Positions 26,835 through 36,362 of a stretch of 64,000 nt of DNA are shown piece by piece. The translations under genes and the position numbers were made by a program. This DNA comes from an uncultured Gammaproteobacteria bacterium. Lineage in GTDB: Bacteria > Pseudomonadota > Gammaproteobacteria > UBA9214. The stretch covers positions 5,336 through 69,335 of the forward strand of contig CAVQJD010000011.1 of NCBI GenBank assembly GCA_963712695.1, written 5' to 3'. Numbering within the stretch: position 1 is the stretch's first letter; the number at the start of each line of letters is the position of its first letter. The notes beneath the pieces are model-generated. The model did no database searches, had not been told where the DNA came from, and worked only from the letters and a program-made list of their open reading frames with translations.

Positions 26835-27269
26835 ATGAAACTGCAAAAAGGTTTTACCCTGATCGAACTTATGATCGTTATCGCGATCATCGGCATCCTG
26901 GCCGCCATCGCGCTGCCTGCTTACCAGGACTACACTGTGCGAAGCAAGGTGTCCGAAGGCCTGAACATGGTTGGTGCGGCCAAGTTGGCTGTCGCCGAGA
27001 CCTATGACAGTACCGGCGGTTTCGTTGCCAACAATGTTTCCTATGGTATGCCGGCCGCAGCCAGTATCTCGGGCACCTATGTATCGACAATTGCTGCCGC
27101 TGGTCAGACGATCACGATCACCTATAAAGCAACAGGCGTAGGTGGTAATCCGACCGCCAACGGTGGCACCATCTTCATAGTGGCCACCACGAACACCGGT
27201 TCGGTTGAGTGGGACTGCACGACAGGCACCATGCCTGCCAAGTACCGTCCGGCCAACTGCCGTCCGTAA
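26835..27269 (+). CDS. pilA: Type IVa major pilin PilA
   Basis: The start is set at [33 protein letters not shown] (6-aa leader, cleavage after Gly, N-terminal Phe). A C-terminal disulfide loop is present (C...C in [19 protein letters not shown]). RBS AAGAGGA lies 6 nt upstream. 144 aa. Confidence 0.95.
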
Positions 27270-27290
27270 TACGTAGACTCGTGCAATTCG

Positions 27291-27320
27291 AACGCCCCAC
27301 CTCGTGTGGGGCGTTTTTAT
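27291..27320 (+). terminator. Rho-independent terminator after pilA
   Basis: Stem aacgccccac / [14 protein letters not shown] a 5-nt loop, followed by TTTTATTT. Confidence 0.85.
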
Positions 27321-27404
27321 TTGATCGGTATGGATGCGACGTTACACTGCCATACCATGCCACACACGCCGTCACACTGGAGCTGACACGCACATTCCGC
27401 CACC

Positions 27405-32848: not shown

Positions 32849-34080
32849 TAAATAACCTCGACCTCCGGAATGAAAGTCACGAACCGCCCACCCCAGTCAC
32901 GTATATGCGACATGCTGGCAATGATTTCGTCACGCAGATTCCACGGCAGTATAACCACGTAATCCGGCTTTGTTTCCGAGAGTTTTTCCGGAGCAAACAC
33001 CGGTATATGCGTACCCGGCAGATAGCTGCCCTGCTTGTGCGGGCTACGATCAACTGTGTAGTCGATAAAATCAGTGCGAATACCACAATAGTTAAGCAGT
33101 GTATTACCCTTGGCAGGCGCACCATACCCGGCAATCTGCTTGCCTGCGCGTTTCGCATTGATCAGAAACTCCAGCAGGCAGCGCTTTGTCTCGTGCACCT
33201 GCCTGGAGAATGCAACATAGGTATCCAGCCGGGACAGACCGGCGACATCCTCACGTGCCCGAAGTTCGGTGACAGCAGTGCTTACCGGCAATGCCCTGTT
33301 GTCGACATGGCGCCCGTAGATGCGCAGTGAGCCGCCGTGAGTCGGCAGCTCATCAACGTCGAACAGGGTAATCCCGTGATGCGCGAAAATGCGTTCGACC
33401 ACCGAATACGACAGGTACGAAAAGTGCTCATGATAAATGGTATCAAACTGGTTACCGTGCATGAGTTTCAGCAGGCTCGGAAACTCCATGGTGATGACAC
33501 CTTTCGGCTTCAGCAGAATCTGCATGCCGGCCACAAAATCATTAATATCGGGCACGTGTGCCAGTACGTTGTTTCCGAGCAGCAGATCGGCACGGATACC
33601 GTCGGCGACCATCGCACGCGCAGTCTCAACGCCGAAGAATTTCACCAGCGTCTCGATCCCCTTCTGCCGTGCCACCGCGGCAACATTCGCGGCCGGCTCT
33701 ACACCGGTGACCCTGATACCCCGTTCAACAAAATACTGCAGCAGGTAGCCATCATTACTCGCCAGTTCGACGACATGACTGTTACGGTCAAGTCCGAGGC
33801 GCTGCATCATCTGCCCGACGTAATCCCGCGCATGCATCAGCCAGCTGTCCGAGTAAGATGAAAAATAGGCGTAGTCGCTGAAGATGCGGTCGGGACTTTC
33901 ATATTCCATCAACTGCACCAGGAAACACCGGTCGCACACATAGGCATGCAGCGGGTAGAACAATTCCATTTTTTGCAGCTGTCCGGCACTGAGATAGGAG
34001 TTGGAAAGCGGTGACATGCCAAGATCACAGAAACTGTGTTTGAGTGGCGCTGCACAAAAACGGCAGTTTGCATCACTCAT
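32848..34080 (-). CDS. SAM-dependent NDP-hexose C-methyltransferase (TylCIII/NovU-like, with N-terminal zinc-binding domain)
   Basis: The start is set at MSDANCRFCAAPLKHSFCDLGMSPLSNSYL (putative Zn-binding domain of sugar C-methyltransferases). VVELASNDGYLL is the SAM motif I. The C-terminal domain has the length of the C-methyltransferase family. 410 aa. Confidence 0.7.
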   Translation of the reverse strand: MSDANCRFCAAPLKHSFCDLGMSPLSNSYLSAGQLQKMELFYPLHAYVCDRCFLVQLMEYESPDRIFSDYAYFSSYSDSWLMHARDYVGQMMQRLGLDRNSHVVELASNDGYLLQYFVERGIRVTGVEPAANVAAVARQKGIETLVKFFGVETARAMVADGIRADLLLGNNVLAHVPDINDFVAGMQILLKPKGVITMEFPSLLKLMHGNQFDTIYHEHFSYLSYSVVERIFAHHGITLFDVDELPTHGGSLRIYGRHVDNRALPVSTAVTELRAREDVAGLSRLDTYVAFSRQVHETKRCLLEFLINAKRAGKQIAGYGAPAKGNTLLNYCGIRTDFIDYTVDRSPHKQGSYLPGTHIPVFAPEKLSETKPDYVVILPWNLRDEIIASMSHIRDWGGRFVTFIPEVEVI

Positions 34081-35152
34081 GAAGTGCGTTTTCCTGGAAG
34101 CGCCGGATCTGGCCCAGTGTAACGGCCCTGATATCGGATCCGGCAAAATATGACTTATACCATTCCACGATCCAGTCGAGGGTCTCCTCGACACTTTGCA
34201 CCGGTCGCCAGTGCAGTACATCGCGGGCGTGACTGCAGTCCAGCTTCAGCAGGGTCGTCTCGTGTGGATGTGCAGTGGCATCGCATTCCCAACCCGCACC
34301 ATCACCCCAGCGCACCGCAAGCGCATCAGTTAGCCAGGAGACAGTGTGCATATCGGTTTCTGCCGGACCAAAATTCCATGCGCCCGAAAAAAATCCACCC
34401 TCATCCCACATTCGTTCGGCAAGGGTAAGATAGCCATTCAGCGGCTCGAGGACAAACTGCCAGGGCCGGATTGCATCTGGGTTGCGCAGTTGCACTGACC
34501 TGCCTTCATTGAAGGCCGTCATGATGTCAGGAATTATACGGTCTTCCGCCCAGTCGCCACCACCGATTACATTACCGGCCCTGGCTGAGGCAACGGCCAC
34601 ACCATGTGACGGATACTCTGCAGGATTGAAATAGGATTTGCGCCAGGCCGCAGTTACCAGCTCGGCGCATCCCTTGCTGCTAGAATAGGGATCAAAACCA
34701 CCCATCGGGTCTGTCTCCCGATAGCCGATATCCTGTTCCCGGTTTTCGTAGCACTTGTCGCTGGTAACGACGATAACCACGCGTGCACGCTTAAGGTTTC
34801 GCACGGCCTCCAGTAAATTCACGGTTCCCATGACGTTGGTCGAAAAGGTATTCACGGGTTCAAGGTAAGAGCGCCGCACCAGCGACTGCGCGGCCATGTG
34901 AATCACGATTTCGCAGTCATACCCTGCCATGCACGACTGCAAGTTGTCGAGATCCCGCACATCCCCGCGGATATCCTCGATATCATCGGCCACACACGCC
35001 AGATCGAACAGGCTGGGCTCGGACGGCGGATCGAGCGAATAGCCGGTTACCCGTGCACCGAGCGACTGCAGCCAGAGACTCAGCCAGCTGCCCTTGAAAC
35101 CCGTATGACCTGTGATCAGTACCTTCTTCCCGCTCCAGAATTCCGACCTCAT
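34073..35152 (-). CDS. rfbG: CDP-glucose 4,6-dehydratase
   Basis: 359 aa. GKKVLITGHTGFKGSWLSLWL and the catalytic YSSSKGCAE are present. It directly follows the cytidylyltransferase gene. Confidence 0.88.
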   Translation of the reverse strand: MRSEFWSGKKVLITGHTGFKGSWLSLWLQSLGARVTGYSLDPPSEPSLFDLACVADDIEDIRGDVRDLDNLQSCMAGYDCEIVIHMAAQSLVRRSYLEPVNTFSTNVMGTVNLLEAVRNLKRARVVIVVTSDKCYENREQDIGYRETDPMGGFDPYSSSKGCAELVTAAWRKSYFNPAEYPSHGVAVASARAGNVIGGGDWAEDRIIPDIMTAFNEGRSVQLRNPDAIRPWQFVLEPLNGYLTLAERMWDEGGFFSGAWNFGPAETDMHTVSWLTDALAVRWGDGAGWECDATAHPHETTLLKLDCSHARDVLHWRPVQSVEETLDWIVEWYKSYFAGSDIRAVTLGQIRRFQENALHE

Positions 35153-35920
35153 CTACCAGACCTTCCAGGGCGGATTGCCCGCCTGCCACAAGGATTCAAG
35201 CATGGTCTTGTCGCGCAGCGTATCCATAGGATGCCAGAATCCGTCGTGCAGGAACGCCGACAACTTTCCATCTCTGGCCAGATTTTCCAGCGGCTCACGC
35301 TCCCAGACAGTTTTGTCATCCTCGATATAATCGAACACCCCGGGCGAGAGCACAAAAAATCCGCCGCTTATACGACCACCGTCGCCGCGCGGCTTCTCTT
35401 CGAAGCCAATAACCTTCTGCCTATCCATGTCCAGCGCACCGAAGCGGCCAGGCGGCTGAATCGCCGTCAATGTGGCGTCACTTCCCATGCGCTGGTGGTA
35501 CCTGATCAGGCTGCCGATGTTGACGTCACTGAGGCCGTCACCATAGGTGAAACAGAAATCCTCGTCCTGCAGGAAGGATCGAACACGCTTCAGACGCCCA
35601 CCCGTCATGGTGTCATCACCGGTATCGACCAGGGTGACGCGCCAAGGCTCGACCTTGTTCTGGTGCACTTCCATGTTATTGTTATTCATATCAAAAGTGA
35701 CATCTGACATGTGCAGGTAATAATTGGCGAAATACTCCTTGATCATGTAGCCCTTGTAGCCGAGGCAGATAATAAAATCGTTTATGCCATGCGCCGAATA
35801 AATCTTCATGATGTGCCAGAGCACCGGCTTGCCGCCGATCTCAATCATCGGTTTCGGCCTGACGATCGTTTCCTCGCTGATCCGTGTACCCAGCCCACCG
35901 GCCAGAATTACCGCTTTCAT
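35153..35920 (-). CDS. rfbF: Glucose-1-phosphate cytidylyltransferase
   Basis: 255 aa. [38 protein letters not shown] and the C-terminal [12 protein letters not shown] are RfbF/DdhA signatures. Confidence 0.9.
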
Positions 35921-36362
35921 TGCGTTTTCACCTAGCTATTGGCCGGTCAGATTGACAGAACTGAGGATAATAATGCATAGATGACATCGACATAAGTCCT
36001 GCCGGCACCAGCATATCGGCTCTTGAATATGATTCGTGAATGCGGCCAGTCTGGAGATCCTGCTGATATAATCGTGCAAGGCGCTGTCGTGAAACAGGGT
36101 GTTGATCCGCTGACCGCGACAACAAGTTAAAGAGTCGGGAAAATATGACGAAATATTCCTAACCAGGCAGATATATAGTTCAATACTGGTATGTCAGGCT
36201 GCATATTCGTTCCTGCAGACTCGCGCCGGCCTTAACAGGCATATATATTATTGATTTAATTGTTTAATAGACGCGCCACATCACGGTAAGCGTAAACGAT
36301 CCGCGAAACCTGACGCTGATCACTTTGAACTTGGACCTTTATAGAGCATTATGCGCTAAGCC

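Follow-up and report, generated by a model that had tools for sequence, protein, structure and literature searches.

A candidate locus for TfpW-type pilin O-glycosylation, with a lipid-sugar synthase of its own and an exchangeable sugar cassette

Introduction

Only two routes of pilin glycosylation have been worked out in Pseudomonas, those that depend on TfpO and TfpW. The pilin-linked TfpO (PilO) of P. aeruginosa group I and PglL from Neisseria transfer a lipid-linked glycan to Ser/Thr residues of pilin in the periplasm; they are Wzy_C-domain enzymes that use undecaprenyl-diphosphate-linked O-units borrowed from lipopolysaccharide (LPS) synthesis. TfpW has been studied solely with D-arabinofuranose (D-Araf). 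According to its published description (bioRxiv 10.1101/2020.04.19.049825), TfpW comprises 646 aa, is encoded directly downstream of pilA and finds its best structural template in ArnT. The protein has a cytoplasmic N-terminus, 11 transmembrane (TM) helices, five periplasmic loops as well as a sizeable periplasmic TPR domain, with an essential DDX motif in loop 1 and a YX6PFX7P motif in loop 4, and is thought to use polyprenyl-phosphate-linked monosaccharide donors. Villela et al. noted pilA-linked tfpW homologues, some of them beside D-Araf genes, and nothing further of this kind. The present analysis concerns a 64,000-nucleotide stretch from an uncultured gammaproteobacterium (contig CAVQJD010000011.1, positions 5,336 to 69,335; hereafter the window), in which the genes between pilA and pilB probably form a dedicated locus for O-glycosylation of the type IV pilin, of the same kind as TfpW except in how the donor is supplied.

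It is the donor supply that is new relative to TfpW, namely a glycosyltransferase of family GT2 within the operon and a hypervariable sugar cassette within the locus. In a literature search, no account was found of TfpW-like genes that are linked to pilA and coupled to a GT2 and to nucleotide-sugar cassettes.

Gene content of the locus

Gene identities were derived from a listing of open reading frames (ORFs) together with Pfam and NCBIfam scans. A preliminary description, made from the letters of the window, had placed eight genes between pilA and pilB; the ORF listing confirms this layout, and profile searches agree with the domains that had been assigned to their products. The locus comprises the following features.

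26835–27269, plus strand: pilA, type IVa major pilin and proposed acceptor (Pilin E 6e-21, N_methyl E 1.5e-10)
27290–27316, plus strand: hairpin resembling a terminator, separating pilA from the accessory genes (11-bp stem, then a T-run)
27405–29393, plus strand: 662-aa GT-C/TPR protein, proposed pilin O-glycosyltransferase (TPR_19 match, AlphaFold2 model, Foldseek)
29390–30292, plus strand: GT2a, 300-aa polyprenyl-phosphate glycosyltransferase of the ArnC/GtrB/DPMS/AglJ type (Glycos_transf_2 E 3e-31)
30299–31216, minus strand: 305-aa divergent PF03706/UPF0104 (MprF flippase-domain-like) membrane protein, proposed flippase (profile comparisons)
31229–32110, minus strand: GT2b, cassette-specific Leloir-type GT2 (Glycos_transf_2 E 8e-26)
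32300–32848, minus strand: RmlC-type NDP-4-keto-6-deoxyhexose 3,5- (or 5-) epimerase (TIGR01221 173 bits, cut-off 156; RmlC in the PDB E 2e-43)
32848–34080, minus strand: NDP-hexose 3-C-methyltransferase of the TylC3/KijD1/TcaB9 type (Methyltransf_13 and Methyltransf_14; PDB matches)
34073–35152, minus strand: CDP-glucose 4,6-dehydratase RfbG (TIGR02622 491 bits, cut-off 278)
35153–35920, minus strand: glucose-1-phosphate cytidylyltransferase RfbF (TIGR02623 468 bits, cut-off 300)

The start of the GT2a gene overlaps the stop of the GT-C/TPR gene (ATGA), so that the two plus-strand genes are translationally coupled. Convergent with this pair runs the six-gene minus-strand operon, transcribed in the order rfbF, rfbG, 3-C-methyltransferase, RmlC-type epimerase, GT2b and 305-aa membrane protein, with neighbouring stop and start codons that overlap or abut. 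PilA carries a leader peptide and a C-terminal Cys-Cys (disulphide) loop, and its mature form of 139 aa contains 19% Ser and Thr. As had been stated before, neither a TfpO/PglL-type transferase nor D-Araf genes are present: a Pfam scan of all island proteins gave no match to Wzy_C (PF04932), and no DPPR synthase, DprE1, DprE2 or UbiA-type genes were found among them by domain scan. The island is thus not a TfpO/PglL system.

The GT-C/TPR protein

The 662-aa protein can be likened to TfpW of P. aeruginosa group IV (Pa5196/PA7, AAM52060.1), with which it shares each feature of the published description apart from the second half of the YX6PFX7P proline motif. Its gene starts at 27405, right after the pilA stop at 27269, and the hairpin that lies between the two recalls an arrangement described for pilin and accessory genes (PMC11841053). 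The lengths of the two proteins are similar (662 vs 646 aa), and the window protein is predicted to have 11 TM helices with the N-terminus inside and the C-terminus outside (AlphaFold2 helices, hydrophobicity and loop charge bias), a C-terminal periplasmic TPR domain and an acidic DD pair in periplasmic loop 1. A probable GT-C-like membrane domain with ArnT as template and a donor linked to polyprenyl monophosphate, which is proposed for the window, would complete the likeness. Since size, TM count, TPR domain, DDX motif and adjacency to pilA all fit the published TfpW, the transfer step is most likely of the TfpW kind, and only the donor-making steps differ. The preliminary description had named TfpW as a contrast and expected a non-canonical transfer chemistry, a view that this resemblance does not bear out.

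The AlphaFold2 model of the protein, built with 36 homologues (pLDDT 79), is built from a helical membrane domain and, C-terminal to it, TPR helices (residues 424–649). Periplasmic loops are predicted at 30–93, 259–316 and 360–373. Invariant residues are D36-D37, Y287-x6-P294, H303-D304-D305, E357 and E368-H369-R370, and all of these other than E357 fall inside the predicted loops. F35-D36-D37, in loop 30–93, is unchanged in 36/36 and 27/27 aligned sequences. With the full-length model, Foldseek returned TPR proteins only. Because the TPR domain dominated these matches, residues 1–432 were refolded alone (pLDDT 65), which yielded ArnT (5f15), yeast STT3 (8agc_A) and PIGU (7wld_U) with TM-scores of 0.39–0.42 and probabilities of at least 0.97, all remaining matches having TM-scores of about 0.13. 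The model thus suggests that the membrane domain likely adopts a GT-C fold. Some family members are named 'protein O-mannosyl-transferase' in JGI records.

Curated models see a single part of the protein, a TPR_19 match at residues 575–620. The membrane part is covered by no Pfam or NCBIfam model, and neither DUF1736 nor PMT_2 matches the protein in Pfam. Neither a protein named TfpW nor any homologue listed by Villela et al. was found by protein searches with GT-C/TPR queries or by cluster look-ups, and a search of a plasmid collection gave no homologue. The 5,087 clusters found at E ≤1e-30 were dropped as a measure of family size, as TPR-only proteins reach such scores (an engineered TPR protein gave E 8.5e-31); only the best 150 of them are all near full length.

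A conserved pilA/GT-C/GT2 core in relatives

Relatives were collected by scanning one genome per species (185,579 species representatives) with two membrane-domain peptides as probes, which gave at least 317 loci; the comparative counts below refer to the best 80 of these 317, closest to the query. In 59/60 testable loci, the GT-C/TPR gene is preceded on the same strand, at no more than 3 kb, by a pilin gene, and in 57/62 testable loci it is directly followed by a GT2a orthologue. These linkages bear out the earlier suggestion that the genes could plausibly serve in pilin glycosylation. The terminator-like hairpin between pilA and the GT-C gene recurs in 60/68 related loci. The hosts belong to many gamma- and betaproteobacterial lineages and include ectothiorhodospira-like metagenome-assembled genomes (MAGs), Thiotrichales, Methylococcaceae, Cellvibrionaceae and Acidiferrobacterales as well as Gallionella, Oxalobacteraceae, Sulfurimicrobium, Sterolibacterium and Methylophilaceae. 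For several relatives, which are MAG contigs, the taxonomic label is doubtful.

The wider context of this core varies. In the window, L081 and L082 (numbered loci are those of the relatives), pilSR lies upstream, whereas Exilibacterium (L044/L086) has a divergent pilDCB and nadC downstream. The cultured Exilibacterium tricleocarpae R142 shows a Pseudomonas-like layout with divergent yacG-coaE-pilD-pilC-pilB, then pilA, GT-C, GT2 and a further GT2, followed by genes for a PF03706-like protein, an O-methyltransferase, a reductase, a C-methyltransferase, RmlC, RfbG and RfbF, and finally nadC. In at least 12 loci the GT-C gene is present as a tandem pair, mostly accompanied by a tandem pair of pilin genes, which suggests paired pilin/transferase specificities. 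Tandem GT-C/TPR genes were recorded in L043, L049, L051, L052, L054, L058, L061, L066, L067, L070, L071, L075, L077 and L080.

GT2a is the candidate for a conserved lipid-sugar synthase. Its best NCBIfam matches are AglJ (1.3e-34, 120 bits), PpgS and ArnC (2e-18), all below their equivalog cut-offs; with a cut-off of 325 bits for AglJ, it is no AglJ equivalog. All of its nearest PDB matches are polyprenyl-phosphate glycosyltransferases, namely ArnC (E 4e-16), DPMS (7e-14) and GtrB (8e-13), and it shares 29% identity with E. coli ArnC (E 2e-22). The translation ends with two hydrophobic segments that are read as TM helices. GT2a is the best-conserved component whatever the cassette, being 75–83% identical between genomes whose cassettes have no gene in common, while GT-C is less conserved and variation is greatest in the TPR domain.

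Some relatives carry further transferase genes at the same place. In L085 (Undibacterium terreum, 7289–9004 and 9399–12823), a 571-aa Wzy_C protein of the PglL/TfpO type is encoded divergently from pilA, and this same pilA is followed by GT-C/TPR and GT2 genes; since the Wzy_C and GT-C/TPR genes thus flank one pilA, two pilin-glycosylation-type enzymes meet at one pilin locus. A gene for a 908-aa TPR and GT41 (OGT-like) protein lies nearby. L002, the closest relative with the same cassette as the window, has an additional 561-aa PMT_2 (ArnT-like) GT-C gene between pilA and GT-C/TPR (8087–9772), and its RmlC gene is seemingly split into two ORFs. L002, L066, L069 and L080 show a proteobacterial pilS-pilR-pilA-GT-C synteny and are labelled as 'Halobacteria archaeon', 'Enterobacteriaceae', 'Anaerolineae' and 'Cyclobacteriaceae' MAGs, respectively, probably through binning or labelling errors.

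Exchange of the cassette

Close relatives share with the window the gene order rluD-bamD-nadE-sucDC-pilS-pilR-pilA-GT-C-GT2 ... pilB-pilC, with genes between GT2 and pilB that are wholly different in each of them. The cassette is likewise bordered by pilB in L005/L081, L011/L083, L038 and L076. Variable presence in relatives, which had been suggested as a check, is seen for the part between GT2 and pilB, but not for the core of pilA, membrane-TPR gene and GT2, which is kept. The picture of an eight-gene insertion has to be given up for the same reason: the first two genes belong to a core that at least 57 related loci retain, and of the eight genes only the six of the minus-strand operon fall in the variable part.

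In our own ORF clustering and iterative hidden Markov model classes, 45 cassettes were compared, whose 286 ORFs fall into 197 clusters, 161 of them confined to one locus. The mean pairwise Jaccard index is 0.02, and 85% of the locus pairs are without any common cluster. Additional Leloir-type transferases of families GT2 or GT4 occur in 35/45 cassettes (one to five per cassette in most), and a flippase-like gene in 28/45, PF03706-like in 10, Wzx-like in 18 and both in none, so that the two types look like alternative solutions for one step. Since GT2a is conserved whatever the cassette and additional Leloir-type transferases and flippase-like genes are this frequent, the glycan would be built on the lipid before flipping.

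The components also differ in their rates of divergence. Median identities to the window in the close clade are 77% for GT2a, 65% for pilA and 52% for the whole GT-C/TPR protein, and mean p-distances between loci amount to 0.33 for GT2a, 0.30 for PilR, 0.57 for the variable part of pilin, 0.48 for the GT-C membrane domain and 0.63 for the TPR domain. Species with a PilR 90% identical to that of the window have GT-C proteins that are only 51–52% identical, and L002, with the same cassette, has a GT-C identity of 65% with a PilR identity of only 78%. Therefore, the module has been exchanged or has diversified faster than its flanks. Once PilR is controlled for, partial Mantel tests link the variable part of pilin to the TPR domain (r 0.38, p 0.002, n=30), less strongly to the GT-C membrane domain (r 0.28, p 0.017), and not significantly to GT2a (r 0.09). 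Being the most variable domain and co-varying with pilin, the TPR domain may serve in pilin recognition.

The sugar pathway of the window cassette

The cassette encodes a predicted pathway to a CDP-activated 6-deoxy-3-C-methyl-hexose in place of D-Araf genes, and the sugar thus differs from that of the characterised systems, as had been anticipated. RfbF, RfbG and the RmlC-type epimerase score above the NCBIfam equivalog cut-offs. RfbF and RfbG match their counterparts from 3,6-dideoxyhexose O-antigens as equivalogs, but the window is without E1/E3 genes for 3-deoxygenation. The methyltransferase aligns over its full length with solved NDP-hexose 3-C-methyltransferases (4rv9 E 6e-86, 5t64 and 3ndi, ranging to E 3e-66) and matches TylC3, KijD1 and TcaB9 at E 1e-66 or better; these characterised enzymes use dTDP-sugars and belong to antibiotic pathways. 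Judged from these assignments, the expected product is CDP-4-keto-6-deoxy-3-C-methyl-hexose with C5, and perhaps also C3, epimerised. A related compound is vinelose, a CDP-linked 6-deoxy-3-C-methyl-2-O-methyl-hexose that reportedly occurs in Azotobacter vinelandii; a literature search for it gave nothing.

The same four sugar genes are completed in different ways elsewhere: L044, L054 and L059 have an SDR reductase and a CmcI-type O-methyltransferase, whereas L002 has a DegT aminotransferase, a GNAT acetyltransferase and the O-methyltransferase, and DegT is found in L017 and L061 too. All six loci (L002, L017, L044, L054, L059 and L061) again carry the CDP-sugar genes at a pil locus and not at LPS loci, so that the refuting condition named beforehand, a linkage of these genes to LPS loci instead of pil genes in relatives, does not apply. 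Within the 64 kb of the window, neither a CmcI-type O-methyltransferase nor a GNAT acetyltransferase was found. Only 6 bp separate the two convergent operons in the window (30292/30299), and L002 carries its three finishing genes (DegT, GNAT and the CmcI-type O-methyltransferase) exactly at this junction. On this ground, the window cassette looks like a deletion variant, and the difference at the junction suggests that loss or gain of genes has altered the glycoform. The sugar would either be finished by an unlinked reductase or remain in the 4-keto form.

The 305-aa protein alone matches PF03706/UPF0104 below the Pfam cut-off (E 0.016). Three of four close homologues match this family, with a best E of 1.8e-7, and hhalign of the 305-aa family against certified PF03706 proteins from the cassettes of relatives gave a probability of 95% and E 2e-8 over 258 columns, so that the earlier assignment as a flippase-like UPF0104 protein holds. 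L002, L044 and L059 combine GT2b with the PF03706-like gene, while L017, L054 and L061 contain CDP-sugar genes without a detectable GT2b in the DNA covered.

Flanking genes and base composition

The locus is framed by further pil genes and a divergent intergenic region.

23398–25077, plus strand: pilS, upstream of pilA
25074–26432, plus strand: pilR, upstream of pilA, forming a two-component regulator pair with pilS
35921–36362, no strand: AT-rich intergenic region from which the sugar operon (minus) and pilB (plus) diverge, GC about 0.49
36363–40216, plus strand: pilB, pilC and pilD, the conserved right-hand border of the variable cassette (pilB TIGR02538 857 bits)

PilS and PilR of the window share 60–91% identity with the products of the L081/L082 genes, which contain 6TM_PilS/HisKA/HATPase and Response_reg/Sigma54_activat/HTH_8 domains, respectively. 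Upstream of pilA, repeated GTCACAATGTGAC / TGTCAC motifs occur at 26480–26580, with an imperfect 26-nt inverted repeat at 26480–26538, and a sigma-54-like −24 element, CTGGCACG (26703–26720), precedes the pilA start codon by about 125 nt, accompanied by a poor −12 element. The TGTCAC-type motifs and the −24 element may represent PilR binding sites and a PilR/RpoN-dependent promoter.

The GC content at third codon positions (GC3) of the island is 0.65 compared with 0.74 for the other genes (p 7e-5), a mild deviation. The pilBCD genes and those up to about 48 kb are equally low, and the GC profile against the flanks, which had been suggested as a check, does not set the island apart. The region from 26.7 to 48 kb has a GC content of about 0.55 and GC3 of 0.65–0.71, while the outer flanks have a GC content of about 0.62–0.65. 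No tRNA and no flanking direct or inverted repeats were found at the island. A recently inserted island was rejected on these grounds, that is, no tRNA, no flanking repeats and a GC3 dip common to pilBCD and beyond. Among the PADLOC defence models, the sole match was a generic methyltransferase domain.

Proposed pathway and alternatives

In the proposed pathway, pilA would be expressed from its own promoter, and read-through of the 27290–27316 hairpin would provide low-level expression of GT-C/TPR and GT2a. At the cytoplasmic face, GT2a may load a common sugar from a nucleotide sugar onto undecaprenyl phosphate. RfbF, RfbG, the 3-C-methyltransferase and the RmlC-type epimerase would make the CDP-activated 6-deoxy-3-C-methyl-hexose, and GT2b most likely adds this CDP-derived sugar to the lipid-linked primer at the same face of the membrane. 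The PF03706-like protein could then flip the lipid-linked glycan to the periplasmic face, where the GT-C/TPR protein would transfer it to Ser/Thr residues of PilA, with the DD pair of loop 1 presumably involved in catalysis and the TPR domain in holding the pilin. In its most extended form, which we regard as tentative, the combination of pilA, GT-C/TPR, GT2 and a hypervariable glycan cassette may constitute a so far unreported 'pilin serotype locus' that is widespread among gamma- and betaproteobacteria from the environment, with a TMTC/TfpW-like O-oligosaccharyltransferase that moves an undecaprenyl-monophosphate-linked glycan en bloc, following the logic of AglJ. Such a glycan would have a constant reducing-end sugar and interchangeable outer sugars, here a CDP-derived 3-C-methyl-6-deoxy-hexose that is possibly 4-keto.

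Several points weigh against a pilin-specific locus of the TfpW kind. Pilin modification is deduced from gene linkage, all evidence being computational, and the linkage statistic, drawn from the 80 loci with the greatest similarity to the query, applies to this subfamily only. The window protein was likened to TfpW through the published description of the latter, and the YX6PFX7P motif is half matched: Y287-X6-P294 in predicted loop 4 is invariant, with F replaced by S and the last P by H303. PDB sequence and profile searches gave no match in the membrane part, the Foldseek E-values to ArnT, STT3 and PIGU are weak (0.07–0.3) on an N-terminal model with a pLDDT of only 65, and hhalign of the family was not significant against E. 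coli ArnT (E 0.24) and marginal against a PMT_2 profile built from the extra GT-C of L002 (E 0.0024, probability 12%). In the close clade alone, the co-variation of pilin and TPR domain is not significant (p 0.10). Finally, neither a 4-ketoreductase nor an aminotransferase that could complete the sugar lies within the 64-kb window, whereas relatives with this pathway have one or the other.

The main rival is a single-sugar mode as in the Gtr and Arn systems, in which GT2a would make an undecaprenyl-phosphate-linked monosaccharide from the CDP-sugar, the PF03706-like protein would flip it and GT-C/TPR would attach sugars to pilin one at a time, perhaps in several rounds, as has been suggested for TfpW, with GT2b being unrelated or accessory. 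A GT2, a flippase and a GT-C protein form the classical three-component layout, GT2a resembles ArnC, GtrB and DPMS, TfpW is believed to work from just such monosaccharide donors, and L017, L054 and L061 seem to manage without GT2b. Yet this mode is disfavoured by the conservation of GT2a across cassettes without common genes, which is hard to square with cassette-specific sugar recognition, and by the additional Leloir-type transferases in most cassettes, which would be unable to act in the periplasm; moreover, GT2b travels with the flippase gene in three loci. It is therefore considered unlikely. Less probable still is that the island modifies another envelope glycoconjugate, such as a side branch of LPS/O-antigen, capsule or other periplasmic proteins, with pilA adjacency reflecting a recombination hot spot. 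GT-C enzymes with GT2 donors commonly decorate LPS or teichoic acids, CDP-6-deoxy sugars are classical components of O-antigens, and the composition dip extends from pilA to 48 kb; however, the adjacency of pilA and GT-C persists across orders while the wider context changes, and co-duplication of pilin and GT-C, the conserved terminator architecture of pilA and the TPR–pilin co-variation all speak for pilin as the target. Neither a Wzy polymerase nor a chain-length regulator nor an initiating phosphoglycosyltransferase was detected by domain scan in the window island.

A last view, to which we give very little credence, takes the 662-aa protein as a non-catalytic pilus accessory or assembly factor comparable to TfpY-like proteins or the TPR lipoprotein PilF, with the sugar genes as unrelated neighbours. 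The match of curated models to the TPR part only, the annotation of one relative as 'PilF' and the weak sequence-level support for GT-C homology would agree with such a role, but not the invariant acidic, His and Arg residues in predicted periplasmic loops of an 11-TM domain, the confinement of fold matches to GT-C proteins and the translational coupling of the gene to a polyprenyl-phosphate GT2.

Significance

Should the assignment as a pilin O-glycosylation locus be correct, a function would be gained for a large protein family whose catalytic domain has no Pfam or NCBIfam model, and the family would provide a bacterial counterpart to the eukaryotic TMTC O-mannosyltransferases. The analysis suggests that a TfpW-type enzyme is the conserved heart of a far broader system with at least 317 loci, a lipid-sugar synthase of its own and a cassette that is rapidly exchanged in the manner of O-antigen loci. 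Pilin glycans have been found to block pilus-specific phages (bioRxiv 10.1101/150227), and the exchange pattern fits diversifying selection on pili by such phages. As E. tricleocarpae R142 and Undibacterium terreum are cultured carriers, the hypothesis is directly testable.

Comparison with known systems

The logic of a GT2 (or equivalent), a flippase and a GT-C transferase is shared with ArnC/ArnEF/ArnT, GtrB/GtrA/GtrC, CsbB/GtcA/YfhO and the pentofuranose systems (Kelly et al. 2024). These differ in their acceptors, which are lipid A, O-antigen or teichoic acids, and in their flippases, which are GtrA, ArnEF or MATE proteins instead of PF03706; they also have neither extra Leloir-type glycosyltransferases nor an in-locus nucleotide-sugar pathway. 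In Haloferax volcanii, the route from AglJ via AglG/I/E to AglB likewise starts with a GT2 that primes a polyprenyl monophosphate, followed by extension by soluble glycosyltransferases and transfer to a surface protein by a GT-C enzyme, but this archaeal system uses dolichyl phosphate and an STT3-type transferase and yields N-linked glycans. Eukaryotic DPM1 together with TMTC1-4 (and PMT/POMT) can be compared in that they also build on a polyprenyl monophosphate for a protein acceptor, with cadherin domains as acceptors and mannose as the only sugar; the window protein differs from TMTC/PMT in having neither of their Pfam domains. In the TfpW system, the donor, polyprenyl-phosphate-linked D-Araf, is made from PRPP by a UbiA-type synthase and DprE1/DprE2, which are encoded elsewhere, and a GtrA-like protein is involved. 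The window, in contrast, has its GT2 within the operon, the MprF-like flippase and the CDP-sugar cassette within the locus, and no TfpX.

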